Part shown: positions 60-18,731 of the stretch, in pieces
Layout: every line of letters begins with the position of its first letter
Numbering within the stretch: position 1 is the first letter of the stretch
Virus genome (UHGV): UHGV-0371767
DNA length: 18,731 nt
Source of the DNA: a virus
Reading direction: 5' to 3' (one strand)
The notes under the pieces: model-generated
Databases searched by the model: none
What the model was told of the DNA's origin: nothing
The model's input: only the letters and a program-made list of their open reading frames with translations
Program-made: the position numbers and the translations under genes

Positions 60-86
60 GATCAATCCCCTGAATAAAAACCGTGG

Positions 87-1655: not shown

Positions 1656-1657
1656 TC

Positions 1658-3762: not shown

Positions 3763-4663
3763 CCGTTCCTCCGTTGGTTACGCTCCACTGCGTACATGAT
3801 GCCGCCTGTGTTTTGTTCAGGACCACATCCGCCAGAGGAGAAGCCAGCTCCACACGCTGCACACCCTCAACATGCAGGGCGGCAAAGATGGCGCTACGGC
3901 GAATATCCCGACCAAGACGCGTCTGACTGGCGATGTACTTCTGCAGGCTGACTTTTGCCGCTGCCATTACCGGCTCTGCTTCCGGTCCCGGATAAAGAAA
4001 AATGGTGGCTTCCACGCGATACGGGATGATTTCTGCGCTGCGAACCGTAAGACGGTCAGCCACCGGGCGGACGTTCTCACTGTTCAGAGCTTTTTCCACC
4101 ACGTCCAGCAGGTCTTTTTCTGCAGTTCCATCGCCTTCGCGGCTAAGGACAGTCAGCACCACCTCTGCAGGTGCCGGGCTGGTTGCACTGGCATCCGCCA
4201 CCCGACCGTCGGCGCTTCGGGCATGAAATTCATAAGCTGCAGTTGGCCCCGCAACTGAAAGCCCTTCAAAGGCTGCAGGCACACGCAGGCGTAACGCTTC
4301 ATCGCTTTCCATCACAGCTGCAACGGGCGGCACAGCGTCATTATCAGCAGGCGTCACCGTCAGGCGTTTCACGTTGTAGTTGGCAGCGAGCTGGTCAAGA
4401 TCGCTGCCCATCGCGTAAGCCACCATCACAGCCTGCGCGGCTTCGTTAATGCGCTGGCGCAGAAGCAACTCACGGTAAGCGTTCTCCTGCAGCAATTTGG
4501 TGACGGGTTCAGATTCCAGTTCCAGCGTGCGGATCACTGCTTCCTGCTCATCTTTCGGATGAAGCGCAACAAATTCGGCCTTGCGTTCGGCAAACAGCGT
4601 CTCAAAGTCCGGCACATCCACAATCTGCGGCGCAGGCAACTGCGAAAGGTCAATCACTGCCAT
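3755..4663 (-). CDS. J: Baseplate protein J (baseplate wedge)
   Basis: ORF track gives 3755..4702, but the ATG at 4663 is preceded by AGGAG at 7-nt spacing and gives 302 aa, the length I recall for P2 gpJ. Confidence 0.75.
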   Translation of the reverse strand: MAVIDLSQLPAPQIVDVPDFETLFAERKAEFVALHPKDEQEAVIRTLELESEPVTKLLQENAYRELLLRQRINEAAQAVMVAYAMGSDLDQLAANYNVKRLTVTPADNDAVPPVAAVMESDEALRLRVPAAFEGLSVAGPTAAYEFHARSADGRVADASATSPAPAEVVLTVLSREGDGTAEKDLLDVVEKALNSENVRPVADRLTVRSAEIIPYRVEATIFLYPGPEAEPVMAAAKVSLQKYIASQTRLGRDIRRSAIFAALHVEGVQRVELASPLADVVLNKTQAASCTQWSVTNGGTDE

Positions 4664-5009
4664 TCTCTGCTCCTGTTGATACGGAAAGGGAAACAGGCAC
4701 ACCGTTATTACGCCGCCCGCTCAGCGCCACCACCATTGAACCGTCAAAATTGCTGTTGATGGTGATGGAATCCAGCGTCATCCGTGGCTCCCAGCGACTC
4801 AGCGCCACATACACTGCCGACATGACCTGCAGGCGTAATGCCGGATTTTGTGGCTGGTCTATTAAAACCGACAGGAGGGAACCATATTCCCGGCGGGCAA
4901 TGCGGCTACCCTGCGGTGTCAGCAGAATGTCCCGCACCGACTGGCGCAGATGATCAATATCAGTAATGACTTTGCCGCTGGTATTGTTCATCCCGCTATA
5001 AAGCGTCAT
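4650..5009 (-). CDS. W: Baseplate protein W (gp25-like)
   Basis: 119-aa ORF between V and J in the conserved P2 baseplate order; ATG at 5009 overlaps the V stop. Confidence 0.7.
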   Translation of the reverse strand: MTLYSGMNNTSGKVITDIDHLRQSVRDILLTPQGSRIARREYGSLLSVLIDQPQNPALRLQVMSAVYVALSRWEPRMTLDSITINSNFDGSMVVALSGRRNNGVPVSLSVSTGAENGSD

Positions 5010-5584
5010 ACCGGGCCTCCGGTTGTGTCACCGCCTTTCAGGACGCCAGTATGCTGATGTGCATCAACCACAATTCCGTTAGAACTCATTGCACCGCCGC
5101 CCTGGGTAACACCACCATTGATCACTACTTCGCTGTTAATGCGTGTGCGGTCAGCCTCCAGTACAAACTCACTGGTTTTCAGGGTGATATTGTCGGCAGC
5201 CTCAATGACCATAGATTTGATGCCCCTGACATACCAGCGCCCGGTGGCGGGTTCGTATTCAAACCTGCCACCGTCCGGGTACTCAACCACGTTGCCGTCC
5301 TCAGAGTCAGAAGGTGGTGGAAACTGATTTGAGTAGACAGCAGGTAGGGCAAACGCGGTTTCCAGATTGCCACCCAGGCTGAATAGCACAACCTGCTCGC
5401 CCACAGACGGTTTCCACCAGGTGCGCGATTTGCCCGCGCGCAGTGTCAGCCAGTTAATCCAGTTGGTTTCGAGGTCGCCAGTTTTCACCCGGCAAAGCCA
5501 GTTATCCCGGTCCACTTCGGTGACTACCCCAGTACGGATCAGGTTGGTGATAAGGCGCATGATTTCTGCAAGTTGTGCGTTCAT
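5006..5584 (-). CDS. V: Baseplate central spike protein V
   Basis: 192-aa ORF first in the V-W-J-I-H-G block; ATG at 5582..5584; size close to P2 gpV. Confidence 0.7.
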   Translation of the reverse strand: MNAQLAEIMRLITNLIRTGVVTEVDRDNWLCRVKTGDLETNWINWLTLRAGKSRTWWKPSVGEQVVLFSLGGNLETAFALPAVYSNQFPPPSDSEDGNVVEYPDGGRFEYEPATGRWYVRGIKSMVIEAADNITLKTSEFVLEADRTRINSEVVINGGVTQGGGAMSSNGIVVDAHQHTGVLKGGDTTGGPV

Positions 5585-5624
5585 TCGCTTAGGATGTCGA
5601 TTAGTCGACTTCTTTGGTAGATCA

Positions 5625-5650
5625 TGTAAATTGTGTCATACATGACACAA
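5625..5650. promoter_or_regulatory. Palindromic element with two overlapping TGT-N12-ACA motifs in the V / inserted-gene intergenic region
   Basis: TGT(5625-5627)-N12-ACA(5640-5642) and TGT(5633-5635)-N12-ACA(5648-5650); core inverted repeat TTGTGTCAT-AC-ATGACACAA at 5631..5650. TGT-N12-ACA is the motif I recall for Ogr/Delta activator sites at P2 late promoters, but the spacing to either flanking start codon does not fit the usual -55 position. Confidence 0.35.
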
Positions 5651-5675
5651 TGCTAATTCACGAAAGAGAGTAATA

Positions 5676-6332
5676 ATGATGGTTTTGGATAAAGAGCAAT
5701 ATCAAGAAGTTCTAAACGAACTAGAGAAAAGAAGATATAACTCCAGAAGATCAACCACAATATTCATGACAGCCATGATCGTCATACTTGCTTATATTGC
5801 CACTGCAGTCATTTACGTAGAATTACAGAAAACACATGAAAAGGATAGAATTTCATCGCTGCTAACCGCTGACGGAATTAAATCCGTAGAATCAACAATT
5901 GACAGCTTAAATCGTGCCAGTATTGAGCTTTCTAGAAAACAAACCCAGATAAAAAACACACCTAACTCAACCCCTCAAATTCAAATAAGCGGAATAGCCC
6001 CTTTACCTTCAACACTAAACCAAAAGTCTTCTATAGATAAAATTCTAGAAACAGTAGGACCTATACTAATAGTGTTTTCCGCTATTCTATTTGTTGTGTA
6101 TATACTTCGTCTTTTTATTATATTCTTAAAATACAATATGCAAATGAATAATGATTACGACAATCAAAAAATCTCTTTTCTGCTTTCAGGTGGAGACACG
6201 AAAGAGTTTGGAGAGATACTTCAAAAAGTAAGAGGTCACAATATAAGTTTTGAAAAGACCCCTACTCTTCCGCAAGAAAAAATAATAACTGAACTGGTTG
6301 ATTTAGTTAAATCAATTAAGGGAAAGAATTAA
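5676..6332 (+). CDS. AT-rich inserted gene: predicted inner-membrane protein with two transmembrane helices, unknown function
   Basis: 218-aa ORF with AAGAGAG ribosome-binding site before ATG 5676; hydrophobic stretches around aa 28-50 and 118-148; codon usage and base composition visibly AT-rich compared with flanking phage genes; opposite strand to the late operons; lies where I recall P2 orf30. Confidence 0.7.
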   Translation: MMVLDKEQYQEVLNELEKRRYNSRRSTTIFMTAMIVILAYIATAVIYVELQKTHEKDRISSLLTADGIKSVESTIDSLNRASIELSRKQTQIKNTPNSTPQIQISGIAPLPSTLNQKSSIDKILETVGPILIVFSAILFVVYILRLFIIFLKYNMQMNNDYDNQKISFLLSGGDTKEFGEILQKVRGHNISFEKTPTLPQEKIITELVDLVKSIKGKN

Positions 6333-6775
6333 CTCCTCAACCAGCAAAGTAAAATACTTCGGGTCAAAGACTCTACATCTTGACTAACCCCTAGCAGTTG
6401 TCTTTGAGCGTATAACACCTCCGGCCCCCGACGGCTTACACGATCACGTAAGCCGTAATGATGTACCCGGACAATCCGCTGCACCTGCCCGGTAAACTCG
6501 ACGCTGGCAGAATCAGGATTGGCGGCAGTTTTCAGGTATTTTGTGGTGCGCAGCTTTGCAAACATCTGACGTTTGATGCGCCCCTTTTTACTGCGTGCTG
6601 TTACCCGTCGAGGTTCATAACTGCTGCCATCTGGATTGCGCTGCATCCTGATGTTCTGCTGCTGTGTCCGGCGCAGTTCCTGCGCCAGCTGGCGCATCAT
6701 GCGGCTTCTGGCGGCTGGCTCCAGATTCGCCAGCAAGGCACTCAGCCAGTCGTCCACTTTCTGCAGTTCAGCCAC
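6329..6775 (-). CDS. S: Tail completion protein S
   Basis: 148-aa ORF, position and size match P2 gpS; overlaps R by 8 nt; start appears to be GTG at 6775. Confidence 0.65.
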   Translation of the reverse strand: MAELQKVDDWLSALLANLEPAARSRMMRQLAQELRRTQQQNIRMQRNPDGSSYEPRRVTARSKKGRIKRQMFAKLRTTKYLKTAANPDSASVEFTGQVQRIVRVHHYGLRDRVSRRGPEVLYAQRQLLGVSQDVESLTRSILLCWLRS

Positions 6776-7199
6776 GTTTTACCGTCCACATTTCTTCAGG
6801 TTCATCGGGTTCCGTTACCGCTTCAACACTCGACACACTGCCGTCAGTGCTGACAAGCACACGCTCCGTCAGTTGCAGGTTCAGGCTGATATCACAGACA
6901 TCGTTGCGCAGAATATCCACCTCAAAGGTGAATAGTTTTTCCCGTAACGTCGGGTTATTGATGGCATCAGGCTGGTTATCCCGCAGCCACAGCAAAACCG
7001 GGGCCATCAGCAGATTCTGGTCGCCGCTGAAATCCTCAATCACCACGTTCAGGGTGTAGCGGTACTCCCATGACATGGAGCTGGTCCCCGTGGCAACCAG
7101 CGAACCGTTATCCACAAACAGATGCAGTTTGTCCGGGTTATTGCGGACATAAGGCACCGCTTTATTGAGGGCACGGCGCAGGGATTGTGGTTTGTTCAC
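6768..7199 (-). CDS. R: Tail completion protein R
   Basis: ORF track extends to a TTG at 7220, but the GTG at 7199 is preceded by AGGAG and gives an N-terminus (NKPQSLRRAL) resembling P2 gpR as recalled. Confidence 0.65.
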   Translation of the reverse strand: MNKPQSLRRALNKAVPYVRNNPDKLHLFVDNGSLVATGTSSMSWEYRYTLNVVIEDFSGDQNLLMAPVLLWLRDNQPDAINNPTLREKLFTFEVDILRNDVCDISLNLQLTERVLVSTDGSVSSVEAVTEPDEPEEMWTVKRG

Positions 7200-7452
7200 T
7201 GTTTCGCTCCTGACACGCAATAATCATGTCCACTTTGTCTGCACAGGCCGCCCAGGCGGCCTCCGTTTCGTCCAGCAACGCGTTCAGATCACCGTTAGTG
7301 TGCGGCGCCGCCTGATCCAACCGACACGGCGTCACTCGCGGACAACCACTGACGGTAAGCTGCACCTCCGGTGAGTACCGGACGTTCCCGCAGCCGGATA
7401 ATGTCAGCAGGCAAAGGAGTATCAGCCCAGCGGCGTAAATCCTCGTTCTCAC
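7162..7452 (-). CDS. lysC: Outer-membrane spanin lipoprotein (Rz1-like, LysC)
   Basis: 96-aa ORF in the +1 frame relative to lysB, starting inside lysB and extending past it; lipobox LLTLSGC; apparent GTG start. Confidence 0.6.
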   Translation of the reverse strand: MRTRIYAAGLILLCLLTLSGCGNVRYSPEVQLTVSGCPRVTPCRLDQAAPHTNGDLNALLDETEAAWAACADKVDMIIACQERNSEQTTIPAPCPQ

Positions 7453-7723
7453 GTTTCAGTTCCTCGATCCGGTGTTGTCGTTGTCTCAGCAGCGCGCTGG
7501 TCTGTTCTGCTTCGGCATAGAGCCGCGCCTGCTCCCGGTTATTGGTTTCAGTCAGAATGGACAGGCTGATAAGCTGGCTGTTGCTCTTTGCCAGTGCCTG
7601 GCTTTTGCTCTGCAGCTCGTCTGCCTGCGAGCTGATGGTCTGGCTGGCATCAGCCAGCCGCCACGTCTGCCAGCCCAGCGCCGCCAGTAATAACGCCAGC
7701 ATAACCAGCAGCAACCGGTTCAT
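7295..7723 (-). CDS. lysB: Inner-membrane spanin (Rz-like, LysB)
   Basis: 142-aa ORF with N-terminal transmembrane helix followed by a charged, coiled-coil-like region; ATG at 7723 overlaps the lysA stop. Confidence 0.7.
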   Translation of the reverse strand: MNRLLLVMLALLLAALGWQTWRLADASQTISSQADELQSKSQALAKSNSQLISLSILTETNNREQARLYAEAEQTSALLRQRQHRIEELKRENEDLRRWADTPLPADIIRLRERPVLTGGAAYRQWLSASDAVSVGSGGAAH

Positions 7724-8097
7724 GCTGCTACCTGTTGCGCCATCTGATTACGGGTGATCCAGAAGGCAATAACGGTCAGCAGATAAAAGACCAGGGTAAT
7801 AGCCCACCCCGTCCAGGCGAGACTGACGACAATCAGCAATCGCATCACCCAGCTGATAAATACGTTTTCTTTTCGGGTAATGGTCTTCAGCAAAGATGCC
7901 CTCAACTCCTGCCAGAGCGAGCCATTCTTAATTAACGCAGCCAGTGCTACCGGAATTACCGCCCATGTCAGTAAACAGGCTACCCAAACGCCGGACGCTG
8001 CCAGTACCGGAAAAATCCCCTGCGGATACACCATTGCTGCAATTAACAGCGCCATCCATAACATCAGAAACAGCCCGCTGATTAATTTCTTTTTCAT
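7720..8097 (-). CDS. lysA: Lysis timing membrane protein LysA
   Basis: Highly hydrophobic protein with about four helices; ATG at 8097 lies 1 nt after the endolysin stop (TGAAATG); ORF track start at 8169 would overlap the endolysin gene. Confidence 0.65.
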   Translation of the reverse strand: MKKKLISGLFLMLWMALLIAAMVYPQGIFPVLAASGVWVACLLTWAVIPVALAALIKNGSLWQELRASLLKTITRKENVFISWVMRLLIVVSLAWTGWAITLVFYLLTVIAFWITRNQMAQQVAA

Positions 8098-8098
8098 T

Positions 8099-8611
8099 TC
8101 AGTTTGCTCCCTGTAAACACCAGGCCATCTCCCGCGCACGGCGGTTATCCAGCCCCTGATTAAACACACCTTTCACATAAACCCAGCGCGGCAACTGTCG
8201 GCACGCATCCGCCCAGCGCCGCTGGTTGAGCAATTTCACCAGCGTGGAACTGCAGGCATTGCCCGTTCCCACGTTGAAGGCAAACGACACCACCGCGTCA
8301 TACACCTTTTGCGGCGGCTGTTGTTTCACACACCTTTCCAGTGCCCGCTCCACACGCAGCACATTGGAGATCAGCCCTTCCGCTGCCTGTCGTTCCGTAA
8401 TGGTTTTGCCTGGAATGACGCCCGATGTATTACCAATGCCGTCGGTCCAGACACCCGCGCTGCACTGATACGGCTGCAGACGACAGCCCTCGTAATCGGC
8501 AATCAGTTTCAGCCCCTCCACGGAGGTGTGAAGCTGCTGAAAACCCGGCAGCGTGGCAGCAATAGCCAGCACGGCCCCGACAAGGCAGCGTTTAACGATT
8601 GATGGATTCAT
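8099..8611 (-). CDS. K: Endolysin, T4-lysozyme-like muramidase with N-terminal hydrophobic segment (probable SAR endolysin)
   Basis: 170-aa ORF with strong GGGAGG ribosome-binding site; N-terminal hydrophobic stretch (CLVGAVLAIAATLPG) followed by a lysozyme-like E...C/D...T region (EGLKLIADYEGCRLQPYQCSAGVWTDGIGNT). Confidence 0.75.
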   Translation of the reverse strand: MNPSIVKRCLVGAVLAIAATLPGFQQLHTSVEGLKLIADYEGCRLQPYQCSAGVWTDGIGNTSGVIPGKTITERQAAEGLISNVLRVERALERCVKQQPPQKVYDAVVSFAFNVGTGNACSSTLVKLLNQRRWADACRQLPRWVYVKGVFNQGLDNRRAREMAWCLQGAN

Positions 8612-8807
8612 AGTCCTCCCGCGAGATCTGCCCGTCGCGCAGAAGCTGGTAGGCTTTGTGTTTGTAGTACCAGTTGATAGCCAGCATCAGCACACCGATC
8701 ATCAGGCCGCCCAGCGTTGAGGCATCCTTGATGGACAAATCGCCCAGCCAGGCCAGCACGACGGCGATGCAATACGTGATAAAGGCGCTGATTCGCTCAA
8801 GCGTCAT
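8592..8807 (-). CDS. Y: Holin (small, two transmembrane helices; pinholin-like)
   Basis: 71-aa ORF immediately upstream of the endolysin with two hydrophobic helices and a charged C-terminus; holin position in the lysis cassette. Confidence 0.65.
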   Translation of the reverse strand: MTLERISAFITYCIAVVLAWLGDLSIKDASTLGGLMIGVLMLAINWYYKHKAYQLLRDGQISREDYESINR

Positions 8808-8810
8808 AAT

Positions 8811-9014
8811 TCAGTCCCATAGCTGGACGGTCTGCACGGTGGTGGTGGTCGGAATGTCCGGCAGCTCCACCTGCAGCCCGTGAGGTAAAAAGGGGCCGTA
8901 TTCGGCAAGCCCCGGATTTGCCTTCAGTACCTGCTCCGTGACACCCTGCGTGCGCCCGTAATGACGCCAGCAAAGCGCGTCCACCGTGTCATACTGATGC
9001 GCACGCACTTTCAT
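8811..9014 (-). CDS. X: Tail protein X
   Basis: 67-aa ORF between head completion gene and holin; size and position as for P2 gpX. Confidence 0.7.
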   Translation of the reverse strand: MKVRAHQYDTVDALCWRHYGRTQGVTEQVLKANPGLAEYGPFLPHGLQVELPDIPTTTTVQTVQLWD

Positions 9015-9478
9015 CAGATAAGCTCCACTGTGCAGTGCGGCGCATCCTGCACCCGGCTGATGGCCCAGCGGGCGTCACGCCACAAATCACCGCTGGATTC
9101 CGCCAGTTCCTCGCCTCGCTTCACACCGGATGCCGTGGCGTCATAGTCCTGGTATCGTTCGTTGAGCATGGCGCGTGCCCAGCAGTAAACCGCGTTGAAA
9201 TAGTGCTGAATGCGCTCACTTTTGCCGTCCAGCTGTTCCGCCGGAACCTCAGCCAGCGACACATACCCCAGCATCTGCTGACGTCTGCGAAACTCATACA
9301 GCTCTGCGTTGACCTCCGAAATTGCCGACAGCGCAACCTGCTTTAAACGCGGCTGCGTCACCGTGCCGTCAGTGCGCATGACACTGCGAAATTCCGACAG
9401 GTCCACATCAGGCCAGAACGGCGTGTTTCTGATGATTTCCGCCTGTTCCGGTGCCTGTTCTGGCGCAACAAACTTCAT
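9014..9478 (-). CDS. L: Head completion/stabilisation protein L
   Basis: Resembles P2 gpL as recalled; the ATG at 9478 has an AGGAGA ribosome-binding site, whereas the ORF-track start at 9541 is GTG with none. Confidence 0.7.
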   Translation of the reverse strand: MKFVAPEQAPEQAEIIRNTPFWPDVDLSEFRSVMRTDGTVTQPRLKQVALSAISEVNAELYEFRRRQQMLGYVSLAEVPAEQLDGKSERIQHYFNAVYCWARAMLNERYQDYDATASGVKRGEELAESSGDLWRDARWAISRVQDAPHCTVELI

Positions 9479-9573
9479 GCTGCTTTCTCCTGAAATAGAG
9501 GGCGGTGGACGGGGTTTTGATATGGCAGTGCCTTTCGCCACCCCGTGCCGCCCGTGCGCGGGGGCACGTTCTG

Positions 9574-10224
9574 TCAGCGGCTGTCATTGCGCAGTCTGCG
9601 CTCCAGCTGCTGTTTGTCTTTTTTCACGCCACAGCGGGGATCGAGCTGTAACGCATGGTTGAGATGATTAAGGGCGGACGCCGGATTGTTTTCACTCAGG
9701 ACAGCGCCAATCGCTTTATGCAGACGCGCCCGTGACTGGTCCGGCATATCCATACCGTCTGTCAGCTCCAGCGTCTGCAGCAACAGATCGGCATCAAAGC
9801 CGGTGGCGGCAAGCATTGCGCTCTGGGCTGCATCTGCCATTTCCTCTGCCAGCACGGTCTGCACGTTGCGGTTACCTAACGGCATCACCCAGCCATGACG
9901 CAGGGCGTGACGCCCGATCTCCAGCCCCCCGGCATAATCTCCGGCATCAATGCGCCACAGCATCACGTACATCAGCACGTCATCCTGCTGTGCGCCTCCG
10001 GCAGCCAGGACACCCTCCGCCCAGGCGGCGTACTTCGGCAGCAGCTCCACTTTGATTTCCGCTTTTTTGACCGTGGACTGAACCCCCTTGAGACGGCGGC
10101 GGTCTTCCGCCAGTTGCAGCAGCATCAGGTCATAGCCCGACGCGTGGCGAACACTGCCGCCCTCGCGGGCGGCCTGTTCAGCCTGAACGCGCAGGCGATG
10201 CTGCCGTGCGGGACTCAGGCTCAT
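9574..10224 (-). CDS. M: Terminase endonuclease (small) subunit M
   Basis: 216-aa ORF following the capsid gene in the O-N-M-L order; ATG at 10224. Confidence 0.7.
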   Translation of the reverse strand: MSLSPARQHRLRVQAEQAAREGGSVRHASGYDLMLLQLAEDRRRLKGVQSTVKKAEIKVELLPKYAAWAEGVLAAGGAQQDDVLMYVMLWRIDAGDYAGGLEIGRHALRHGWVMPLGNRNVQTVLAEEMADAAQSAMLAATGFDADLLLQTLELTDGMDMPDQSRARLHKAIGAVLSENNPASALNHLNHALQLDPRCGVKKDKQQLERRLRNDSR

Positions 10225-10227
10225 GGA

Positions 10228-11286
10228 TTACGCTCCGGTTTCTGCTGCGGCGGCGCTGAAGTCGCCAATCTGGATGTTTTCCACCAGTGCGGCGCAGCGG
10301 TAGTCCTCAACCACATAGGCTTCGTTAACGGATTCAAAGTTTTCAATCCGGTCACGTTTCGGGTTGTCGATAACTGAACGGCGGCGGGTGTCTTCCTGCC
10401 AGTAGATGGACAGGTTATCCAGACGGGTGATCAGCAGCGCATTCGGCGGGAAGAACGGCGCACGCACGGCCTGCAGGCCACCCATGCGTTTCTGACTGAT
10501 GATCATATCGGCAGCCAGTTTTTCACTGTTTTCCTGCTCTTTGTTGACCAGTGGGAAATACTTGTCAGACAGCAGTTCACGACCGCAAATCACCACCAGA
10601 TCGTCATCGTCCTGGTAGACCACGTCGATAAGCTCATTAACGGCATCCATCACCACGGCGTCCAAGTTGGCATATTCGCCACCTTTACCAACTTTCACCG
10701 CACCCGGTGTGGTTTCACCGCCCGTGGTGGTGCTGCCCATGACGTGATCCGGTGCATCCTCACGGATTTTCTGCAGCCAGCCTTTGTTTACATCCTGCAG
10801 CAGCGGGTTTTCACTACGGTTGGAGGTTTTCGCACGCTTCACGCCGTTAAAGCCGATCATGATGCGGTCCAGAGCCTGACGTTTCACGATGGCGTCACGG
10901 ATACGCACCTGAAAATCCTGAAACTTCGCCCACAGGTCCAGCTTCGCGTAGGTCAGTACCGTGTCAAAGTTGGTCTGCTCGCATTTATATTCCACATCGA
11001 CCATCAGCGTCGGATCGACAGGTTCACGCTCTTTCGCGGTGGTGTCAGTGGTTCCGGCAATGGTGCTGCCAACTCCCAACCCCAGCAGCTGACCGGACTG
11101 CTCAGTCACTGGCGTGACGTTAATCAGCGTCAGGAAAGCGGCGGACTGCTGGATCTGGTCTTCCAATGTCTGCTGCACGGACGGCTCTACGGTGAACTTG
11201 CTGGACAGTTCTTCAACTGCCACACCGTTCAGACGCGCCAGCTGCTTCAGGTAAGCGTTAAAAGCAAAGCGGGTATTCTTCTTCAT
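10228..11286 (-). CDS. N: Major capsid protein N
   Basis: 352-aa ORF with GGAG ribosome-binding site; size and position match P2 gpN (recalled as about 357 aa). Confidence 0.8.
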   Translation of the reverse strand: MKKNTRFAFNAYLKQLARLNGVAVEELSSKFTVEPSVQQTLEDQIQQSAAFLTLINVTPVTEQSGQLLGLGVGSTIAGTTDTTAKEREPVDPTLMVDVEYKCEQTNFDTVLTYAKLDLWAKFQDFQVRIRDAIVKRQALDRIMIGFNGVKRAKTSNRSENPLLQDVNKGWLQKIREDAPDHVMGSTTTGGETTPGAVKVGKGGEYANLDAVVMDAVNELIDVVYQDDDDLVVICGRELLSDKYFPLVNKEQENSEKLAADMIISQKRMGGLQAVRAPFFPPNALLITRLDNLSIYWQEDTRRRSVIDNPKRDRIENFESVNEAYVVEDYRCAALVENIQIGDFSAAAAETGA

Positions 11287-11302
11287 CAGGTTTTGTGCTC
11301 CA

Positions 11303-12136
11303 TCAGCAATTGGTCAGAGTGTCAGCGGGGGCGTTACCGCCTGTTGCACGCTGGCGGTAGTCCTGGCGGCTGTCTTCTTGGCTCAACTTGTCCACCAGTT
11401 CGTTAAAGGCGGTCTGCTGTGCCTGCAGGGCAGTCTCCAGCTCAGACAGGCGTTCTTCCTGCTCAGACAGGGATTTTTCGGTGCGCGCACTCAGGTTCTG
11501 CTGCTCAGTGGCGACCAGTTCCACGGCCTTATGCACATCAGAGAACCGGGCATCATCGGACTGCTCTTTTTTGGTGAACAGCGCTGTGACACGGGCAAAC
11601 AGGGACGGTTTGTCATCCTGGATTTCTTCCAGTTCGATCACCGTTTCCTCTGCAGCGGTAAAAAGATTGGCGGGATTCTGCTTGCGGTTTGCCAGCGGGT
11701 TATGAGCTGCACTGGCGCTGAATGTCAGCATTTCAGTGCCCAGACTGGCAGGGTCATCAGTGGCAGCCAGGCCGACCAGGTAGGCTTTGCCCGTATCAGC
11801 GAACTTCGGGCTGACTTCCATAGAGGTGAATAATTTCTGGCCTTTTTTCACCAGTTCCACCAGGGACTCCGTTGGCTCAACGTCGGCATACAGCGCCATC
11901 TTGCCTGCCAGCGGACCTTCCGTGATTTCTTCAGCAAACAGCGCCGTCACCTTGCCGTAGCGGTTAAAGGTGCTGTCCGGCAGATAAGACTTGATGTGCT
12001 CAAGGTTAATCAGCGCGGTATACACCGCCGGGTTGTAGCTGGCTGCCATCTGTTCCAGCCATTCACGCTGGATTTCGCGTCCGTCGGTGGTGGCACCTTC
12101 CACCCCGATGCGAAAACGCTTTGCTTTCACTGTCAT
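11303..12136 (-). CDS. O: Capsid scaffolding protein O
   Basis: 277-aa ORF, acidic, coiled-coil-rich C-terminal half; first gene of the leftward late operon, divergent from P. Confidence 0.75.
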   Translation of the reverse strand: MTVKAKRFRIGVEGATTDGREIQREWLEQMAASYNPAVYTALINLEHIKSYLPDSTFNRYGKVTALFAEEITEGPLAGKMALYADVEPTESLVELVKKGQKLFTSMEVSPKFADTGKAYLVGLAATDDPASLGTEMLTFSASAAHNPLANRKQNPANLFTAAEETVIELEEIQDDKPSLFARVTALFTKKEQSDDARFSDVHKAVELVATEQQNLSARTEKSLSEQEERLSELETALQAQQTAFNELVDKLSQEDSRQDYRQRATGGNAPADTLTNC

Positions 12137-12214
12137 GAGCCGTGCTCCGTTAGAAAAAACTTACTGGAGCCTTATGGTTGCGGTGATGGGGGCAGTGAAA
12201 CAATGCGCGGTATT

Positions 12215-12232
12215 TGTACCGACAACCACACA
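12215..12232. promoter_or_regulatory. TGT-N12-ACA box in the divergent O/P intergenic region (candidate Ogr/Delta activator site for the O-operon late promoter)
   Basis: TGT at 12215-12217, 12-nt spacer, ACA at 12230-12232. The centre is about 87 nt upstream of the O start codon, compatible with a -55 site and a roughly 30-nt leader; too close to the P start to serve P. Confidence 0.4.
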
Positions 12233-12278
12233 AACCGCAGGCGGGGAAAGCCTTCATTCAAGGCTGTAGGTTTGTGCC

Positions 12279-14045
12279 ATGAACACCACACTGACACCCG
12301 CAGATCTCGATCCCCGTCGGCAGGCCATGCTGCTGTACTTTCAGGGATACCGCGTAGCCCGCATTGCTGAAATGCTGGGCGAGAAAGTTGCAACCGTTCA
12401 CAGCTGGAAAAAACGCGACAAGTGGGGTGACTATGGGCCGCTGGATCAGATGCAGCTCACCACCGCCGCCCGCTACTGCCAGCTCATTATGAAGGAGCAC
12501 AAAGAAGGGAAAGATTTCAAAGAGATTGACCTGCTGGCGCGCCAGTCGGAGCGCCACGCGCGGATCGGCAAGTTTAACAATGGCGGCAACGAAGCCGACT
12601 TAAACCCAAACGTCGCCAACCGCAACAAAGGCCCGCGCCGTCAGCCGGAAAAGAATGTTTTCACCGATGAACAGATTGAGAAGCTGGAAGAAATCTTCCA
12701 TTCCTCCATGTTCAACTACCAGCGCCACTGGTGGGAAGCCGGAAAAACCAACCGCATCCGCAACCTGCTGAAGTCACGCCAGATCGGCGCGACCTTTTAC
12801 TTTGCCCGTGAAGCCCTGATTGACGCCCTGCTGACCGGGCGTAACCAGATTTTCCTTTCCGCCAGTAAGGCACAGGCGCACGTCTTTAAGCAGTACATCA
12901 TCGACTTCGCCAAAGAAGTGGAAGTGGAGCTGAAAGGCGATCCGATGGTGCTTCCTAACGGTGCCACGCTTTACTTCCTCGGCACCAATGCCCGCACGGC
13001 CCAGAGTTATCACGGCAACCTGTATCTGGATGAATATTTCTGGATACCGAAATTTCAGGAGCTGCGCAAAGTGGCTTCCGGTATGGCTATTCACAAGAAA
13101 TGGCGGCAGACCTATTTTTCCACGCCATCCAGCCTGACACACAGTGCTTATCCGTTCTGGTCCGGTGCGCTGTTCAACCGTGGGCGCAACAAAGCTGACA
13201 AGGTGGACATCGACCTGTCCCACAGCAATCTGGCCCCCGGCCTGCTGTGCGCAGACGGGCAATACCGCCAGATAGTCACCGTGGAAGATGCGGTGCGCGG
13301 CGGCTGTAACCTGTTCGACCTCGACCAGCTACGCATGGAGTACAGCCCGGACGAATACCAGAACCTGCTGATGTGCGAGTTCGTGGACGATCTCGCGTCC
13401 GTGTTCCCGCTCAGCGAACTGCAGGCGTGCATGGTGGACAGCTGGGAAGTCTGGACCGACTTTCATGCACTGGCCCTGCGCCCGTTTGGCTGGCGCGAAG
13501 TGTGGATCGGTTATGACCCGGCGAAAGGTACGCAGAACGGCGACAGTGCCGGATGCGTGGTGGTGGCTCCGCCAGCCGTGCCAGGCGGCAAGTTCCGCAT
13601 TCTTGAGCGTCACCAGTGGCGCGGGATGGACTTTCGCGCCCAGGCTGACGCCATCAAAAAACTGACCGAACAGTACAATGTGACCTATATCGGTATCGAC
13701 TCAACCGGCGTTGGTCACGGGGTTTACGAGAACGTGAAAGCGTTTTTTCCTGCCGTCCGGGAGTTTGTCTACAACCCCAACGTTAAAAACGCCCTGGTAC
13801 TCAAGGCCTACGACATTATCAGCCACCGCCGTCTGGAGTTTGACGCCGGACACACCGACATAGCACAGTCCTTTATGGCAATCCGTCGTGCCACCACCGC
13901 CAGCGGCAACCGCCCGACCTATGAAGCCAGCCGCAGCGAAGAAGCCAGCCACGCCGATCTGGCTTGGGCAACAATGCACGCACTGTTTAACGAACCACTG
14001 CAAGGCGAGTCCGCCAATACCAGTAATATTGTGGAGATTTTTTGA
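12279..14045 (+). CDS. P: Terminase ATPase (large) subunit P
   Basis: 588-aa ORF, size matching P2 gpP (recalled as about 590 aa); stop overlaps the portal start (TGATG). Confidence 0.85.
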   Translation: MNTTLTPADLDPRRQAMLLYFQGYRVARIAEMLGEKVATVHSWKKRDKWGDYGPLDQMQLTTAARYCQLIMKEHKEGKDFKEIDLLARQSERHARIGKFNNGGNEADLNPNVANRNKGPRRQPEKNVFTDEQIEKLEEIFHSSMFNYQRHWWEAGKTNRIRNLLKSRQIGATFYFAREALIDALLTGRNQIFLSASKAQAHVFKQYIIDFAKEVEVELKGDPMVLPNGATLYFLGTNARTAQSYHGNLYLDEYFWIPKFQELRKVASGMAIHKKWRQTYFSTPSSLTHSAYPFWSGALFNRGRNKADKVDIDLSHSNLAPGLLCADGQYRQIVTVEDAVRGGCNLFDLDQLRMEYSPDEYQNLLMCEFVDDLASVFPLSELQACMVDSWEVWTDFHALALRPFGWREVWIGYDPAKGTQNGDSAGCVVVAPPAVPGGKFRILERHQWRGMDFRAQADAIKKLTEQYNVTYIGIDSTGVGHGVYENVKAFFPAVREFVYNPNVKNALVLKAYDIISHRRLEFDAGHTDIAQSFMAIRRATTASGNRPTYEASRSEEASHADLAWATMHALFNEPLQGESANTSNIVEIF

Positions 14046-15076
14046 TGGGAAAGAGTAAGAAGAACCGCGCTGCGTCGACGAACCAGATCCAGCATAAAAG
14101 CCAGACTTCAGCCGAAGCATTCAGCTTCGGTGATCCCGTTCCTGTTCTGGACCGCCGCGAACTACTGGACTATGTGGAATGCGTACAGACAGATCGCTGG
14201 TATGAGCCGCCAGTAAGCTTTGACGGACTGGCGCGCACCTTCCGCGCCGCCGTGCATCACAGTTCACCAATTGCGGTGAAATGCAACATTCTGACCAGTA
14301 CCTACATCCCTCACCCGCTGCTCAGCCAGCAGGCTTTTTCACGTTTTGTGCAGGACTATCTGGTATTTGGTAACGCCTACCTGGAGAAACGCACGAACCG
14401 CTTCGGTGAAGTTATCGCCCTTGAGCCAGCTTTGGCAAAATACACCCGACGCGGATTAGACCTGGATACCTACTGGTTTGTGCAATACGGTATGACAGCC
14501 CAGCCGTATCAGTTCACGAAAGGCAGCATTTTTCATCTGATGGAACCGGACATCAACCAGGAGATCTACGGCCTGCCCGGTTATCTTTCTGCCATTCCAT
14601 CCGCCCTGCTCAACGAATCCGCCACGCTGTTCCGCCGCAAGTATTACATTAACGGCAGTCATGCTGGCTTCATCATGTACATGACCGACGCCGCGCAGAA
14701 CCAGGAAGATGTGAACAACCTCCGTAATGCGATGAAAAGCGCCAAAGGCCCAGGCAATTTCCGCAACCTGTTTATGTACTCGCCTAACGGCAAAAAGGAT
14801 GGTCTTCAGATTATCCCGTTATCAGAAGTCGCGGCAAAGGATGAATTTCTTAACATCAAGAACGTCAGCCGTGATGATATGATGGCGGCGCATCGTGTAC
14901 CGCCACAGATGATGGGGATTATGCCGAATAATGTTGGGGGGTTTGGGGATGTGGAGAAGGCGGCAAATGTATTTGTGCGTAATGAGCTTATTCCATTACA
15001 AAAAATACTCGAAGAAATAAATAATTGGTTAGACAATACAATAATACAATTCAAAAATTACTCATTGACGATGTAA
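14045..15076 (+). CDS. Q: Portal (capsid vertex) protein Q
   Basis: 343 aa from the ATG at 14045 (the ORF track starts 3 nt earlier at a TTG); size and position match P2 gpQ. Confidence 0.85.
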   Translation: MGKSKKNRAASTNQIQHKSQTSAEAFSFGDPVPVLDRRELLDYVECVQTDRWYEPPVSFDGLARTFRAAVHHSSPIAVKCNILTSTYIPHPLLSQQAFSRFVQDYLVFGNAYLEKRTNRFGEVIALEPALAKYTRRGLDLDTYWFVQYGMTAQPYQFTKGSIFHLMEPDINQEIYGLPGYLSAIPSALLNESATLFRRKYYINGSHAGFIMYMTDAAQNQEDVNNLRNAMKSAKGPGNFRNLFMYSPNGKKDGLQIIPLSEVAAKDEFLNIKNVSRDDMMAAHRVPPQMMGIMPNNVGGFGDVEKAANVFVRNELIPLQKILEEINNWLDNTIIQFKNYSLTM

Positions 15077-15080
15077 ATTA

Positions 15081-15110
15081 AAATTTAGCTGGCTAATGCC
15101 AGCTAAATTT
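15081..15110. terminator. Bidirectional intrinsic terminator between convergent genes Q and the cargo operon
   Basis: Perfect 13-bp stem AAATTTAGCTGGC / GCCAGCTAAATTT with 4-nt loop TAAT, flanked by A/T runs on both sides; sits between the Q stop (15074..15076) and the cargo gene stop (15113..15115). Confidence 0.7.
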
Positions 15111-15112
15111 TA

Positions 15113-15742
15113 TCATTTCAAATAACGACAATCAGTTTCCCTATCAAGAAAATCAATCATTTCATCATTTGTATAATGTGCATTCAAACCAATTTTAAAC
15201 GTTGGCGGATTAGAATAAAAGACGTCGAAATGATATAATGGATGACGATTTCCATTAGCCCTTTCTTCATCGACATCATATCTAATATAACCATCCTCAT
15301 AAGTTAACAACATTCTAAGAAAAGGCCAAAACCCGGGAATACCTTGATGTTCTTCAATATTTAACAATGGTTCAAAAAAGGCCCAAGAAGAACTATTCAA
15401 ATAAGAGGAGTCATTAATAAAAGAAATGACTTTTGATGTTACAAAACTATCTATACACTCCATTTCTGGACTACTAAATAAAATCTGACCATTAATTTCA
15501 TCAAGAAAAAAAGGAAATGCAAGAGAATAATATTTATTTTCACTAAAGAAGAAAACTCGACTCATCTTTGATATATGAAGTTTCACTCTCCCAACCACAT
15601 TCTGTTCGCATGGTTCTGTATAAACAGAAATTAGTTTGATTAATCTCATCAATATTTCAATAACATCTTTCTTTGTTCGTATTGGCTTAAAGGCCCAGTC
15701 ACACTGAGCCTGCTCCAGACTAAAATAATACTCTTTATTCAC
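15113..15742 (-). CDS. Cargo gene B: 209-aa soluble protein of unknown function, translationally coupled to the upstream helicase-like gene
   Basis: GTG start at 15742..15740 preceded by AGGAG 5 nt upstream and overlapping the upstream stop (GTGA); AT-rich composition; no recognisable catalytic motif. Confidence 0.65.
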   Translation of the reverse strand: MNKEYYFSLEQAQCDWAFKPIRTKKDVIEILMRLIKLISVYTEPCEQNVVGRVKLHISKMSRVFFFSENKYYSLAFPFFLDEINGQILFSSPEMECIDSFVTSKVISFINDSSYLNSSSWAFFEPLLNIEEHQGIPGFWPFLRMLLTYEDGYIRYDVDEERANGNRHPLYHFDVFYSNPPTFKIGLNAHYTNDEMIDFLDRETDCRYLK

Positions 15743-17817
15743 TTCGACTCCTGAAGCATTATTTCATAGTTGAACCGAACAAGAGTAGTAATTTTATCGA
15801 CATCAAAAGAATCAGGCATGATTGTTTTTACTGTATTATACAGGGATGTACGAAATATCGGCTCAATCTGTAAGTCATCGAAGACCTTTGTAACCAAATC
15901 ATAATGAGATATATTTTTCTCATCATATTTGATTGTTGTTCTTATTTTTGAAATAACTTCTCTCGGTGGAACGTTAATATCCATATAACCATGCTCATTA
16001 ATAGCATCTAACCCCTTTTCTATCTCATTCTGTAAGTCTTTATTCCCATCCCCCAGAAGCAAATATGATTTAATAAAGGAACGAGTTAACATCATATATA
16101 GTGAATTTCGATAAGAATGGCTCTTGATAATATCACGAGTAACACAGATAACAAAAGGAAACTCCAACCCTTTTACATGGTTTTTATTACTTATGAATAA
16201 CGTATCTTTAATTTTTTCTTTTGTTTCATATGCCTTATTAACCTTCCACCCTAATAATCTAGGCACGCTCAATTCAAGTCTGTCTGCGATTTTAAATATA
16301 GTCTTAGCCTGATCAATAAAGATGATACCAATATCATCAGCCAAAACAGTAGGATTCTCCTCCTTAATTTTACGGAGTATACCCAAAATATTCTCTTCTT
16401 CAGTTTCATATGTGGAATTAATTAATTCCACACTATGTATTTTTGCATCCGTTACATCTTCAAATCTTCTTAGTGGCTCTCTCTTTAATCTTAATTTACC
16501 TTTTACCGATTCATCAACTATATAACCGCAGGCTTCCCATTCATTATTCATTAACCAAGTTAATGGTTCTTCTTCAAATAGCCCCATACCTAAACCATGA
16601 GCAAACATCAATGTCCTTGGATCTGTTCGGTAGCATTTACTTAGAAGAAAGTCTGGCTGTATCTCATTAGAGATATTAGTATCAAATATACTTTGAAATA
16701 TATCACCAGCAACATAAATAGTATCACGAGTTACCAGCTCGCAAAGCTCAATGAAGCTTGATGGGAAATCCTGACTTTCATCTATTAACATAAAGTCAAA
16801 GCAATGCTTAAATTCATTGCTTGGCAACTTTTTTAGTTCATCCAACGCAATTCTACATACTTTATCGAAAGTCATCACATAGCTAAAGCGATAGAAACTT
16901 AATCCATAATATTCACATATATATCTATATGCGCCAGAGTTACCGTCATATTGAGAACCCCATGCATTAACACACCAAAGTCTTTCATTCCAGCTAATCT
17001 GCTGCTCGACCTTCATAAAGTTGAAAAACTCTGGAATTCTCTTTCTCATATTGTCTGCCAATATTTTATTATGGCACGTAAACATTATTTTACTATTTAA
17101 ATTCTCCTTATCCAAATATATTTCCTTTAACTTATGAAGCAATAGTTCAGTCTTACCAGTACCTGATAATCCTTGAATAACAACTTTTTTCTTATCAAAT
17201 TTTTGGTATACAAACCTTGTCTGATCTCCATCAAACAAAATTATCTTTTGCTTAACCTTGTCAAGTATATTATCTGGCACATTGCCTTTAACTTTATCAA
17301 TATTATTGATACTTCCTGTTAAGAGAGAGATAATTAACTCACTCTTTTTAGCCAGAACACCATCAATAATTTTAATTTCATCAAAAAACTTATCAAGATT
17401 ACCGAAACTAAAATCAGCGTATGAGCACTCAGTAACAAGTTTATCTTTCCACGCTCGAGGCCTACCAATTGTATCTTTATAATTGTATTTATCTGATAAG
17501 GAACCTAAATCCTCTATAAAATCCTCTATAAAATTTTGTATACCATCAACATCATCACTAAAAGCAACGAACGCTAATTGGTATCCTGGGCTTAATATAA
17601 TAAGAACATCGTCTCTATTATATTTATATTTATTTTCCCCTAAGGGATTCATTATTGCATAAATCTGCATTTGATGAGTATTTGCATACTCTTCAACAGA
17701 GTTCAAAAAATCAGCATTTGTATCATTTTTTAAATCAGGCTGGATATAAAAGAAACTGCTCATAGAAAGCCTTAACGAGGTGGATAAAAACTTATATGTT
17801 GTTTCTAAAATTAGCAT
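15739..17817 (-). CDS. Cargo gene A: SF1 helicase-like P-loop ATPase (UvrD/RecD/DUF2075-like motifs) with an unassigned N-terminal domain of about 200 aa
   Basis: 692-aa ORF. Walker A GLSGTGKT (aa 216-223), motif II LIDESQD (aa 344-350), motif III VAGDIFQS (aa 369-376), motif IV CYRT (aa 395-398), motif VI-like YMMLTRS near the C-terminus. Strongly AT-rich. The true start may be the internal ATG at 17763 (AAGG ribosome-binding site), giving 674 aa. Confidence 0.75.
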   Translation of the reverse strand: MLILETTYKFLSTSLRLSMSSFFYIQPDLKNDTNADFLNSVEEYANTHQMQIYAIMNPLGENKYKYNRDDVLIILSPGYQLAFVAFSDDVDGIQNFIEDFIEDLGSLSDKYNYKDTIGRPRAWKDKLVTECSYADFSFGNLDKFFDEIKIIDGVLAKKSELIISLLTGSINNIDKVKGNVPDNILDKVKQKIILFDGDQTRFVYQKFDKKKVVIQGLSGTGKTELLLHKLKEIYLDKENLNSKIMFTCHNKILADNMRKRIPEFFNFMKVEQQISWNERLWCVNAWGSQYDGNSGAYRYICEYYGLSFYRFSYVMTFDKVCRIALDELKKLPSNEFKHCFDFMLIDESQDFPSSFIELCELVTRDTIYVAGDIFQSIFDTNISNEIQPDFLLSKCYRTDPRTLMFAHGLGMGLFEEEPLTWLMNNEWEACGYIVDESVKGKLRLKREPLRRFEDVTDAKIHSVELINSTYETEEENILGILRKIKEENPTVLADDIGIIFIDQAKTIFKIADRLELSVPRLLGWKVNKAYETKEKIKDTLFISNKNHVKGLEFPFVICVTRDIIKSHSYRNSLYMMLTRSFIKSYLLLGDGNKDLQNEIEKGLDAINEHGYMDINVPPREVISKIRTTIKYDEKNISHYDLVTKVFDDLQIEPIFRTSLYNTVKTIMPDSFDVDKITTLVRFNYEIMLQESK

Positions 17818-17897
17818 TTTTCAACAAACTTTTCCATTCAGCCATCATCTTGCAGGTGCTTGTTTTGCCTTCCCCCCCACTCAGCCACTTGCGCGCG

Positions 17898-17916
17898 CTC
17901 GTATCCCCGCCACGCC
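17898..17916. other. Candidate cos site (cohesive-end sequence of a P2-like phage)
   Basis: Reverse complement of 17891..17925 reads GGCGTGGCGGGGATACGAGCGCGCGC, close to the P2 left cohesive end as I recall it (GGCGAGGCGGGGAAAGCAC followed by TGCGCGC); embedded in a short GC-rich block (about 17850..18060) between two AT-rich cargo regions. Confidence 0.55.
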
Positions 17917-18236
17917 TGCCCGCTTTGTATAGCGGTTTTCATGCACTCGCATGGCATAAGGGAAACCTTGCCAGAACTGGCGACCCTCAGCGAAAACGAT
18001 CTTCAAACGATCATGCGGATTCATGCAGCATAGACAGGCACTACTGAGCAATAGCGCTTGAGTTCAGTCAGATATGAGTCCTCAATGTAATACTAATACA
18101 TCTTAACCGTTCATCATTATTCACATCGGGCTATGTAATTACAGAAAAACTTTTCACAATCAATTTTATACTGGATTATTTCAGTTTATTGTATAATTCA
18201 TGACGCATGCAAATTGACATTAATTCAGGAGACAAA

Positions 18237-18731
18237 ATGACATTAATTGTAGCTGGTTTCGAAAAAGATGGAACAATTGTTTTTTGCGGGGACTCACTAA
18301 TAACAACAAAAGCAAATGGAAGCACTGTAAAATTGACATCGTCCTTCAGAAAAATAATACCACTAGAAATTATTGTGCGAGTACCGGAAATCGATCCAAG
18401 TGGAAAAATCATAAATTACATTGAAAGCCTTTGCCAACATCGCTGCATGATTGCATTTGCAGGAAGCACGCTAGTTTCTCAACATATTATAAATTCTATA
18501 CAAGGTCATCTGAAACAAATAAAATACACGTATGATTCTGGCACATATGACTATTCAGAAGGATGCATAAAGGGTGCTGGCTATAAGTTAATAATGGGTT
18601 GTGAAGATAACAAAAGCGTTGAGGAAACCTATTGGAACGAAGATATGTTTGTTGAGCCAGTAAAGAATGCGAACGAACTTATTAATAAAAATTTTCTACG
18701 CAACGTCTTTAGCCACTGCATACAGAAAACC
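18237..18731 (+). CDS. AT-rich cargo gene beyond cos, 3'-truncated by window end (165 codons visible); weak proteasome/HslV-like Ntn-hydrolase N-terminal signature
   Basis: ATG at 18237 preceded by AGGAG (18227..18231) and a TATAAT box at 18192..18197; open reading frame runs without stop to the window end (absent from the ORF track for that reason). N-terminus MTLIVAGFEKDGTIVFCGDS and later IAFAGS loosely resemble HslV (TTIVSVRRNGHVVIAGDGQ… VIAGFAGG). Confidence 0.55.
   Translation, partial: MTLIVAGFEKDGTIVFCGDSLITTKANGSTVKLTSSFRKIIPLEIIVRVPEIDPSGKIINYIESLCQHRCMIAFAGSTLVSQHIINSIQGHLKQIKYTYDSGTYDYSEGCIKGAGYKLIMGCEDNKSVEETYWNEDMFVEPVKNANELINKNFLRNVFSHCIQKT

Follow-up and report, generated by a model that had tools for sequence, protein, structure and literature searches.

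Here, I show that the virus genome UHGV-0371767, analysed over its full stretch of 18,731 nt (the window; coordinates are window positions unless a contig is named), ends in a plus-strand gene whose product has a predicted proteasome-like fold, and that this gene is carried as a discrete single-gene cassette of ~1.1 kb between cos and the gpA backbone of a P2/186-like prophage. The reading preferred here, to which a probability of roughly 45% is assigned, is that the gene, starting at 18237, encodes a propeptide-less threonine hydrolase of the N-terminal nucleophile (Ntn) type which serves as a stand-alone defence or exclusion gene. Its two components are not equally secure: the predicted structure and the conserved residues make it probable, with good confidence, that the protein is an active proteasome-type Ntn hydrolase, while a role in defence against phages and other mobile genetic elements (MGEs), read from genomic context only, has an even chance of being correct.

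Reality of the gene and its full-length product

The open reading frame (ORF) opens with the ATG at 18237 and contains no stop through all 165 codons up to the window end at 18731; at a GC content of 35%, a run of 165 codons without a stop would arise by chance with a probability of ~5e-6, and one of the full 303 codons with ~2e-10. Its GC content is 0.34, against 0.53 in the phage structural region (window 1-15076), and a Shine-Dalgarno sequence, AGGAG, lies at 18227-18231, 5 nt 5' of the ATG. The original prediction, made from the letters of the window, had described an AT-rich gene running off the window with a strong ribosome-binding site and a TATAAT box, and had quoted the strings MTLIVAGF, GDS and IAFAGS from its product; all these elements are present, with a reservation as to the promoter. 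The TATAAT hexamer stands at 18192-18197, its -35 is poor, and a two-hexamer consensus scan called no sigma70 promoter there; within 17800-18731, three promoter-like sites were observed vs 2.9 +/- 1.4 in shuffled sequence, hence no excess. On these signals the ribosome-binding site is solid, and a promoter consisting of a lone -10 box only plausible.

An upstream in-frame ATG at 18207 lacks a Shine-Dalgarno sequence and, as a start codon, has no backing from family conservation, the conserved start (Met-Thr-Leu...) in the family alignment being that at 18237. An antisense ORF of 78 residues (18176-18412, minus strand), which overlaps the gene start, has no conservation support and is therefore probably spurious, and an Rfam scan detected no RNA elements around the cassette. 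An exhaustive profile search of 1.84 billion proteins yielded 113 family representatives at the 50% level, mostly of 280-330 residues, and comparison of the two closest P2-borne copies gives a ratio of non-synonymous to synonymous substitution rates (dN/dS) of 0.16, with values of 0.1-0.2 between lineages. Given a dN/dS of 0.16 and this number of representatives, the gene is confirmed as real and under purifying selection.

The missing part of the gene was recovered from the IMG/VR contig L011, which is 99.9% identical to window 17891-18731 and extends beyond the window end. The ORF is not disrupted past that point, and the complete protein comprises 303 residues; it is identical to P0136, annotated as "hypothetical protein [Escherichia coli]", for which the index of the assembly collection gives 283 blocks.

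Predicted fold and catalytic residues

The protein P0127, 96% identical to the window protein, was modelled with AlphaFold2 as its stand-in from a 101-sequence alignment, with a predicted local distance difference test (pLDDT) score of 94.3 and a predicted template modelling (pTM) score of 0.91; a 12-residue insertion at residues 104-115 appears in the model as a small extra hairpin of slightly lower confidence. When the model was searched against the PDB with Foldseek, the top matches were only proteasome subunits, Anbu and HslV, with a probability of 1.0, and a fold search of BFVD found only remote proteasome-like viral proteins. Proteins have been classified as proteasome-like by their fold together with Thr1/Ser1, Asp17, Lys33 and Gly47 (Fuchs, Alva and Lupas 2021, PMC8665760). 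The predicted model shows the alpha-beta-beta-alpha fold, with core strands S1-S11 and helices H1-H4, and places Thr2, Asp19, Lys39 and Gly76 topologically at the positions of proteasome beta Thr1, Asp17, Lys33 and Gly47; with all four residues present, the family is, as modelled, proteasome-like in the sense of PMC8665760. The loose resemblance to the N-terminal nucleophile region of HslV and proteasome beta subunits, which the original prediction had noticed, is thus supported by the predicted fold and by the conserved residues, sequence methods being blind to it; likewise Thr2, which had been put forward as a possible nucleophile, is a plausible one, as judged from its conservation and its place in the model.

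The codons concerned, and that of the insertion, are as follows.

18240-18242, plus strand: Thr2, predicted N-terminal nucleophile after removal of Met1; Thr in 88 of 92 sequences and Ser in 3; opening of strand S1
18291-18293, plus strand: Asp19, predicted equivalent of proteasome Asp17; Asp in 91 of 92; end of S2; paired with HslV Asp17 by hhalign
18351-18353, plus strand: Lys39, predicted equivalent of proteasome Lys33; Lys in 94 of 94; directly before S4; paired with HslV Lys33 by hhalign
18462-18464, plus strand: Gly76 in AFAGST, predicted equivalent of the oxyanion-hole Gly47 and of the HslV motif GFAGG; Gly in 95 of 96; end of S5, before helix H1
18546-18581, plus strand: lineage-specific 12-residue insertion YDYSEGCIKGAG, residues 104-115, in the S6/S7 hairpin; only in the 90% cluster of the window protein

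The alignments on which these counts are based hold 96-101 members, 16-95% identical to the reference and mostly 20-30%. Met1 and Lys39 are invariant, the protein starts with MT in 87 of 96 cases, strand S1 beginning at residue 3, and T2, D19, S20, G76, G228 and P275 are kept at >=90% over 101 sequences; Ser20, Gly228 and Pro275 are nearly invariant (Gly228 in 100/100 of the larger alignment). The seeming N-terminal extensions of distant members turn out to be a variable insertion in the first hairpin, the start MT[LI][IV][IV]AG being kept. The family also has conserved polar residues of its own, namely C70, Q82, H83, N86, H91, C122, N125, H160 and C192, each conserved at ~67-88%, with codons within 18444-18716 save for C192, which lies beyond the window; their conservation might reflect a metal site or a position along the walls of the substrate cleft. 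Mapping by register from G76 and K39 places the S1-pocket positions 20/31/35/45/49/53 at I22/F37/I41/F74/T78/Q82 of the model, which would make for a hydrophobic pocket.

Members are gammaproteobacterial, from Escherichia, Enterobacter, Klebsiella, Salmonella, Citrobacter, Pantoea, Serratia, Yersinia, Dickeya and Vibrio, and further from Rheinheimera, Cobetia, Pseudoalteromonas and marine metagenomes. The family is annotated only as "hypothetical", and no sequence method ties it to proteasomes. Its PHROGs match is phrog_25719, "unknown function" (7.5e-130); phrog_1040, 'peptidase HslV family', was matched by one member only, at E=0.05. Scattered weak matches to TcdB_toxin_midN, Phage_Gp15, uL23, HscB and Integrator 3 are mutually inconsistent and were set aside as noise.

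The proteasome fold and its catalytic residues do not by themselves imply proteolysis. The protein could instead catalyse a specific transpeptidation or ligation, in the manner of connectase, or hydrolyse a non-protein amide derived from the cell wall, lipids or nucleotides, for which other Ntn hydrolases offer precedent; this alternative, which draws on the same fold and residues, is regarded as rather improbable.

A single-gene cassette between cos and gpA

The gene and its surroundings within the window are laid out as follows.

17850-18049, no strand assigned: cos-region block of higher GC in the P2/186-like backbone, flanking the cassette on its left and outside it
18050-18236, plus strand: AT-rich cassette leader with the lone TATAAT (18192-18197) and AGGAG (18227-18231), not in the near-isogenic GF66.2 prophage
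18237-18731, plus strand: proteasome-beta-like Ntn-hydrolase gene, codons 1-165 of 303, with the end of the stop codon expected at window-equivalent 19148

Intergenic counterparts of the cos block occur in 1,246 E. coli records; the block contains, at 17905-17916, CCCCGCCACGCC, which I take to be the core of the 186/P2 cohesive end in reverse complement. Window 11800-18049, comprising scaffold, terminase, portal, a gene for a 209-residue protein, a DEAD/DEAH helicase and the intergenic block, shares 99.55% identity with a 186/P2-like prophage annotated in E. coli GF66.2, and the identity ends exactly at 18049. In GF66.2 the block joins a hairpin region directly, followed by a DinI-like gene; in L011, ~1.1 kb (4119-5216) lie between block and hairpin, and exactly that segment is missing from the near-isogenic GF66.2, so that the two prophages differ by a ~1.1-kb insertion made up of the leader and the Ntn ORF only. 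The exact cassette junctions are window 18049/18050, L011:4118-5217 and L027 (NZ_CP172145.1):6250-6252. The right junction coincides with the stop codon and is followed by the conserved backbone hairpin (L011:5245-5279, -23 kcal/mol); 3' of it, in contigs with the identical gene, come a minus-strand backbone gene of 62 residues and then gpA (Phage_GPA, 2e-127). Because GF66.2 is without exactly L011:4119-5216, and the next genes belong to the backbone, the element starting at 18050 is a discrete single-gene cassette of ~1.1 kb between cos and the gpA backbone. The leader is unconserved between family lineages apart from GGAG and the ATG-ACN start; the mobile unit is therefore essentially the ORF.

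In P2-like phages the gpA-cos-gpQ interval is a validated defence hotspot, and it is there that P2 has old and tin (Rousset et al. 2022, PMC9122126). The original prediction had placed the gene on the far side of cos, at the old/tin end of P2, and this location is upheld by the GF66.2 match up to 18049 and by the gpA that comes next. As a side observation, a PAPS-reductase-like gene for 336 residues (PF01507, 9e-34) lies between gpA and a Dam-type methylase on the minus strand of L011 (8070-9080) and L038 (9765-10775); being found in only some prophages, it marks another variable accessory slot.

Independence from the cargo across cos

On the Q side of cos, 420 bp from the gene, the window carries on the minus strand (15113-17817) the genes for the 209-residue protein, which has no family match, and for a UvrD-like helicase of 692 residues (Pfam UvrD_C_2/UvrD-helicase/AAA_19; PADLOC 'Helicase' PDLC03002, 3e-28). 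By its composition this pair looks like a two-gene helicase defence system; it recurs at 99.55% identity in GF66.2, annotated there as a hypothetical protein and a DEAD/DEAH box helicase. The Ntn protein might be a component of a multi-gene system, either with this operon, given its proximity across cos, or with a protein of 363 residues met in other lineages (see below).

The distribution of the two elements speaks otherwise. The GF66.2 prophage carries the helicase operon and not the Ntn gene, and the identical Ntn protein occurs with at least six Q-side cargos, of which the helicase operon is one and the other five are without helicase:

Vpar_1526 with a gene for 81 residues
a PDDEXK trio of the GAPS4 type
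a type II-A retron (RT_II-A 7e-128, NDT_II-A 5e-94)
a reverse transcriptase of 585 residues
a RES-domain protein

The retron, with an effector of the NDT_II-A / STM3845 type, occupies the Q-side slot at L011:1846-4026 (minus strand) and is also present in L036-L038. The two sides of cos are shuffled independently, and the link to the helicase operon was rejected, each having been found without the other. In addition, the P2 slot is bounded by cos and backbone genes and leaves no room for a partner. The original prediction had left it open whether the gene was independent or part of a larger system, and had suggested co-occurrence with the helicase operon as a guide: the first option stands, in the form of a stand-alone cassette, and membership in a larger system with the helicase operon is largely refuted.

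Genomic contexts of the relatives

Some 13 independent contexts of family members were examined in a qualitative survey without background statistics. They include the following.

P2-like hotspots of E. coli and Serratia
an AlpA/TrbL integrative island with CTD10/MC6/DUF2326, a DEAD helicase and DUF4917, PDC-S45 adjoining
an integrase/AlpA island, with NACHT in one variant
a plasmid-like element, adjoining Mrr and near AbiEii
an integrase-bounded island, at the end of which the member stands immediately behind a MADS-type kinase/HerA locus (mad6 1e-45, mad8 3e-24)
L031:7001-7912, a 25%-identical member 5 bp after the stop of hsdR (hsdR 3655-6996), with Mrr and an hsdM-hsdS-hsdR array
a position between a CHAT protease and a NACHT ATPase, HEPN nearby
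a position among IS21/Tn7-like genes
L013-L017 (IMG/VR), ~10001-10900, 28-30%-identical members after terminase (Terminase_6N) and portal (DUF4055)
Dickeya, where the gene is inserted by itself amid housekeeping genes, with no defence neighbour

Known or candidate defence genes adjoin in most of these contexts, and no partner gene recurs throughout. The L031 member, from its spacing, appears to be co-transcribed with a Type I restriction-modification (R-M) system. The L013-L017 phages, which also carry an MvaT-like silencer and an FRG-domain gene (in L016 an AbiJ_NTD4/DUF7014 gene adjoins), seem to form another phage lineage, one whose accessory hotspot lies near the portal. A prohead-protease role in these phages was considered and discarded: from one related phage to the next the content of the slot changes, with AbiJ-like, FRG and MvaT-like genes as accessory occupants.

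The protein of 363 residues mentioned above is trypsin-like (TAWHNV motif, faint Trypsin_2) and matches the PADLOC single-gene candidate PDC-S45 (2.5e-17); its gene lies on the minus strand at L018-L023:6774-7865, L010:8774-9865, L025:9020-10111 and L026:1601-2692. It adjoins Ntn homologues in two lineages, in differing orientations and with 63% mutual identity, the respective Ntn proteins being 67% and 40% identical to that of the window, which could be taken in favour of a joint system. By tblastn, however, it is present in only 2 of ~10 lineages and is absent from the window, L011 and L012; as an obligate partner PDC-S45 was therefore rejected, and it could be an occasional partner or merely a fellow island gene. 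A multi-gene system, with either the helicase operon or PDC-S45, is accordingly judged very unlikely.

Comparison with known systems

The 20S proteasome beta subunits (MEROPS T1; PF00227) are the closest structures, at an identity of only ~10-15%. Unlike them, the protein starts with Met-Thr, without a propeptide, has no Ser129 equivalent, and is encoded by a mobile single gene in gammaproteobacterial MGEs; it also has ~100 extra residues, distributed over the S1-S2 loop, hairpin 46-67 and helices 126-147, the hairpin being conserved and carrying P50/F52/F58/Y61. Neither an alpha-subunit gene nor a second proteasome-like gene was found in the ~13 contexts. The closest bacterial analogue, HslV (ClpQ), has ~175 residues and is encoded with its AAA+ partner HslU, whereas the proteins considered here have 280-320 residues (303 in the window lineage) and, in the same ~13 contexts, no AAA+ unfoldase gene adjoins a family member; the 'GSGG' serine motif of HslV is not present, no Ser follows G228, and the sequence similarity is not significant. 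Since it fails PF00227 and is without HslU linkage, alpha partner, propeptide and Ser129-type residues, the family is a distinct proteasome-like one, not to be filed as HslV or as a 20S beta subunit.

As to the other bacterial homologues, Anbu is characterised by a conserved operon and by a C-terminal helix H5 forming split rings, and BPH by heptameric double rings (PMC8665760); neither has been reported in prophage hotspots, and neither has detectable sequence similarity to the protein described here. In addition, 22 new proteasome homolog clusters have been catalogued, for which no function or link to defence islands was proposed (Fuchs et al. 2021, PMC8665760); the present protein, as modelled, falls under the same definition as these clusters (among them GPH, DPH, PMI-5 and the phage-borne PPH and AAH). 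Phage-mediated spread was noted for PPH and AAH (PMC8665760); at only ~140 residues, PPH is unlike the protein here. The Gammaproteobacterial Proteasome Homolog (GPH) shares the gammaproteobacterial distribution, GPH and the present family having been compared by description only; an additional C-terminal domain is described for 'DGH', which is probably GPH, and the family here is without such a domain. None of ~20 WP accessions of family members equals a listed representative of these clusters, including that of GPH, WP_152342571.1. The family may be the same as a cluster already named in 2021, and GPH would fit taxonomically.

Lit of e14 is a prophage protease that blocks superinfecting phage; a zinc metalloprotease, it is, together with Old, an ATPase-TOPRIM nuclease, a functional analogue of the protein described here, with no homology to it. 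With P2 old and tin the cassette shares its niche (the gpA-cos-gpQ hotspot, PMC9122126), and on the defence reading it would resemble them in logic too, as a single gene for exclusion that is carried constitutively. That the gene might itself be a homologue from the old/tin region, as the original prediction had allowed, was rejected on the grounds that Pfam and PADLOC give no match and that the predicted fold is proteasome-like; the tin sequence itself was not directly compared.

Weighing the defence hypothesis

A number of observations weigh against the reading of the family as active hydrolases in defence. In the first place, the relationship to proteasomes escapes every sequence comparison: none of 8 members matched PF00227 even at E<=10, the protein has no real match in Pfam, NCBIfam or PADLOC, and searches of PDB sequences with 8- and 101-sequence profiles returned no proteasome chain. 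The probability given by hhalign against E. coli HslV is only 8.6%, and the residue equivalences therefore rest on the predicted structure; this alignment, though weak, pairs D19 with D17, K39 with K33 and AFAGST with GFAGGT. Secondly, part of the proteasome active site has no counterpart. Under a mapping by secondary-structure register only, the residue after the invariant G228 (the Gly128 position) is Met, Ile or Leu at position 229, leaving no Ser129 equivalent, and there is no conserved Asp-x-x-Ser in 256-270 to stand for the Asp166/Ser169 pair. Thirdly, isolated proteasome beta subunits are inactive outside the assembled ring (PMC8665760).

The gene is, moreover, rare and at times broken. 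A megablast search against 5,426 complete RefSeq E. coli genomes gave no match for it, matches in this region being confined to the cos block, and tblastn of its product against 50,697 phage records gave none either. Split copies (81 + 184 residues; P0137 + P0138) occur on ~25 E. coli contigs, P0137 being an N-terminal fragment that ends in ...GSTLVS and P0138 a C-terminal fragment from MGCENN; apparently, these reflect pseudogenisation in one E. coli lineage, the gene being occasionally lost. Together with the missing Ser129-type residues, rarity and splitting would suit a catalytically dead relic, comparable to alpha subunits, or a decaying gene. This explanation is nevertheless held to be the most improbable of those considered: Thr2, Asp19, Lys39 and Gly76 are kept at >=90% at an overall identity of 20-30%, unlike in inactive alpha subunits, dN/dS is 0.1-0.2 and the intact protein recurs identically across the 283 index blocks.

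With regard to function, the Dickeya homologue among housekeeping genes is the context that fits defence least, and hotspot location predicts defence only sometimes, 3 of 8 newly cloned P2-hotspot systems having been protective (PMC9122126). No literature link was found between any proteasome homologue and phage defence, nor was any report found of experimental phage protection by the family. An active proteasome-like hydrolase could also be a moron serving host or prophage physiology, for instance in stress proteolysis (possibly docked to an unfoldase of the host such as HslU), in lysogeny control or in counter-defence, where it would degrade an immune protein of the host or of a rival. Such a moron would draw on the same fold and catalytic evidence; it would agree with the Dickeya insertion, with the non-defence cargo that P2-family hotspots also hold (in GF66.2 this very slot has a DinI-like gene), and with the majority of newly cloned P2-hotspot genes, which were without a defence phenotype (PMC9122126). 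It is nonetheless considered unlikely, though the strongest of the alternatives: the neighbours in the ~13 contexts are overwhelmingly defence or conflict genes or MGE cargo, down to the member placed 5 bp after hsdR, an AAA+ unfoldase gene never adjoins, and the distribution, patchy, horizontally mobile and low in GC, is what conflict genes typically show. Furthermore, 6 of 8 P4-hotspot loci of unknown function were protective when tested (PMC13586616), and the hotspot literature as a whole supports a substantial prior for a defence role.

A possible mechanism

Under the preferred reading, that of a stand-alone Ntn hydrolase in defence or exclusion, the lysogen would express the gene alone from its AT-rich leader, as with P2 old and tin. 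Methionine aminopeptidase, which prefers small second residues, would then remove Met1 and expose Thr as residue 1, as in E. coli HslV; I infer this step from that preference together with the near-universal Met-Thr start. The PDB chains of E. coli HslV likewise begin at Thr2 of an MTTIV... precursor. Thr1 would attack a peptide or amide bond, probably a peptide bond, with Lys39 and Asp19 acting as proton relay and the backbone of Gly76 providing the oxyanion hole. Specificity or gating may come from the family-specific insertions (S1-S2 loop, hairpin 46-67, helices 126-147) and the conserved polar set, which would stand in for an alpha ring or an AAA+ partner encoded nearby. The enzyme would act alone in phage exclusion, defence or other conflict between MGEs, as the genomic contexts suggest, by cleaving a phage protein or, once triggered, a host protein.

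In its broadest form, the proposal is that stand-alone proteasome-like threonine peptidases represent an unrecognised class of single-gene anti-phage or anti-MGE effectors, spread as a minimal cassette among gammaproteobacterial prophage hotspots, islands, plasmids and islands with R-M, NACHT and MADS systems; put this widely, it is tentative and somewhat less probable than an even chance. Such an effector could act as a gated, self-compartmentalised chamber or via a borrowed host unfoldase, destroying phage proteins or killing the infected cell.

Conclusions

To sum up, the enzyme superfamily is a familiar one, and what is new is the family-specific architecture, the behaviour as a cassette and the niche in defence hotspots. 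The predicted fold with its intact Thr/Asp/Lys/Gly set, the single-gene mobility and the location, almost confined to validated defence hotspots and to defence islands, turn an orphan fold into a directly testable hypothesis. Should the defence hypothesis fail, the gene would still offer a clean case of modular cargo swapping at the P2 cos hotspot. For no bacterial proteasome homologue apart from HslV is a function known. If the hypothesis is true, Ntn threonine proteolysis would be a new enzymatic principle in prokaryotic immunity, and such orphans among the bacterial proteasome homologues as Anbu, BPH and GPH would gain a first biological role.

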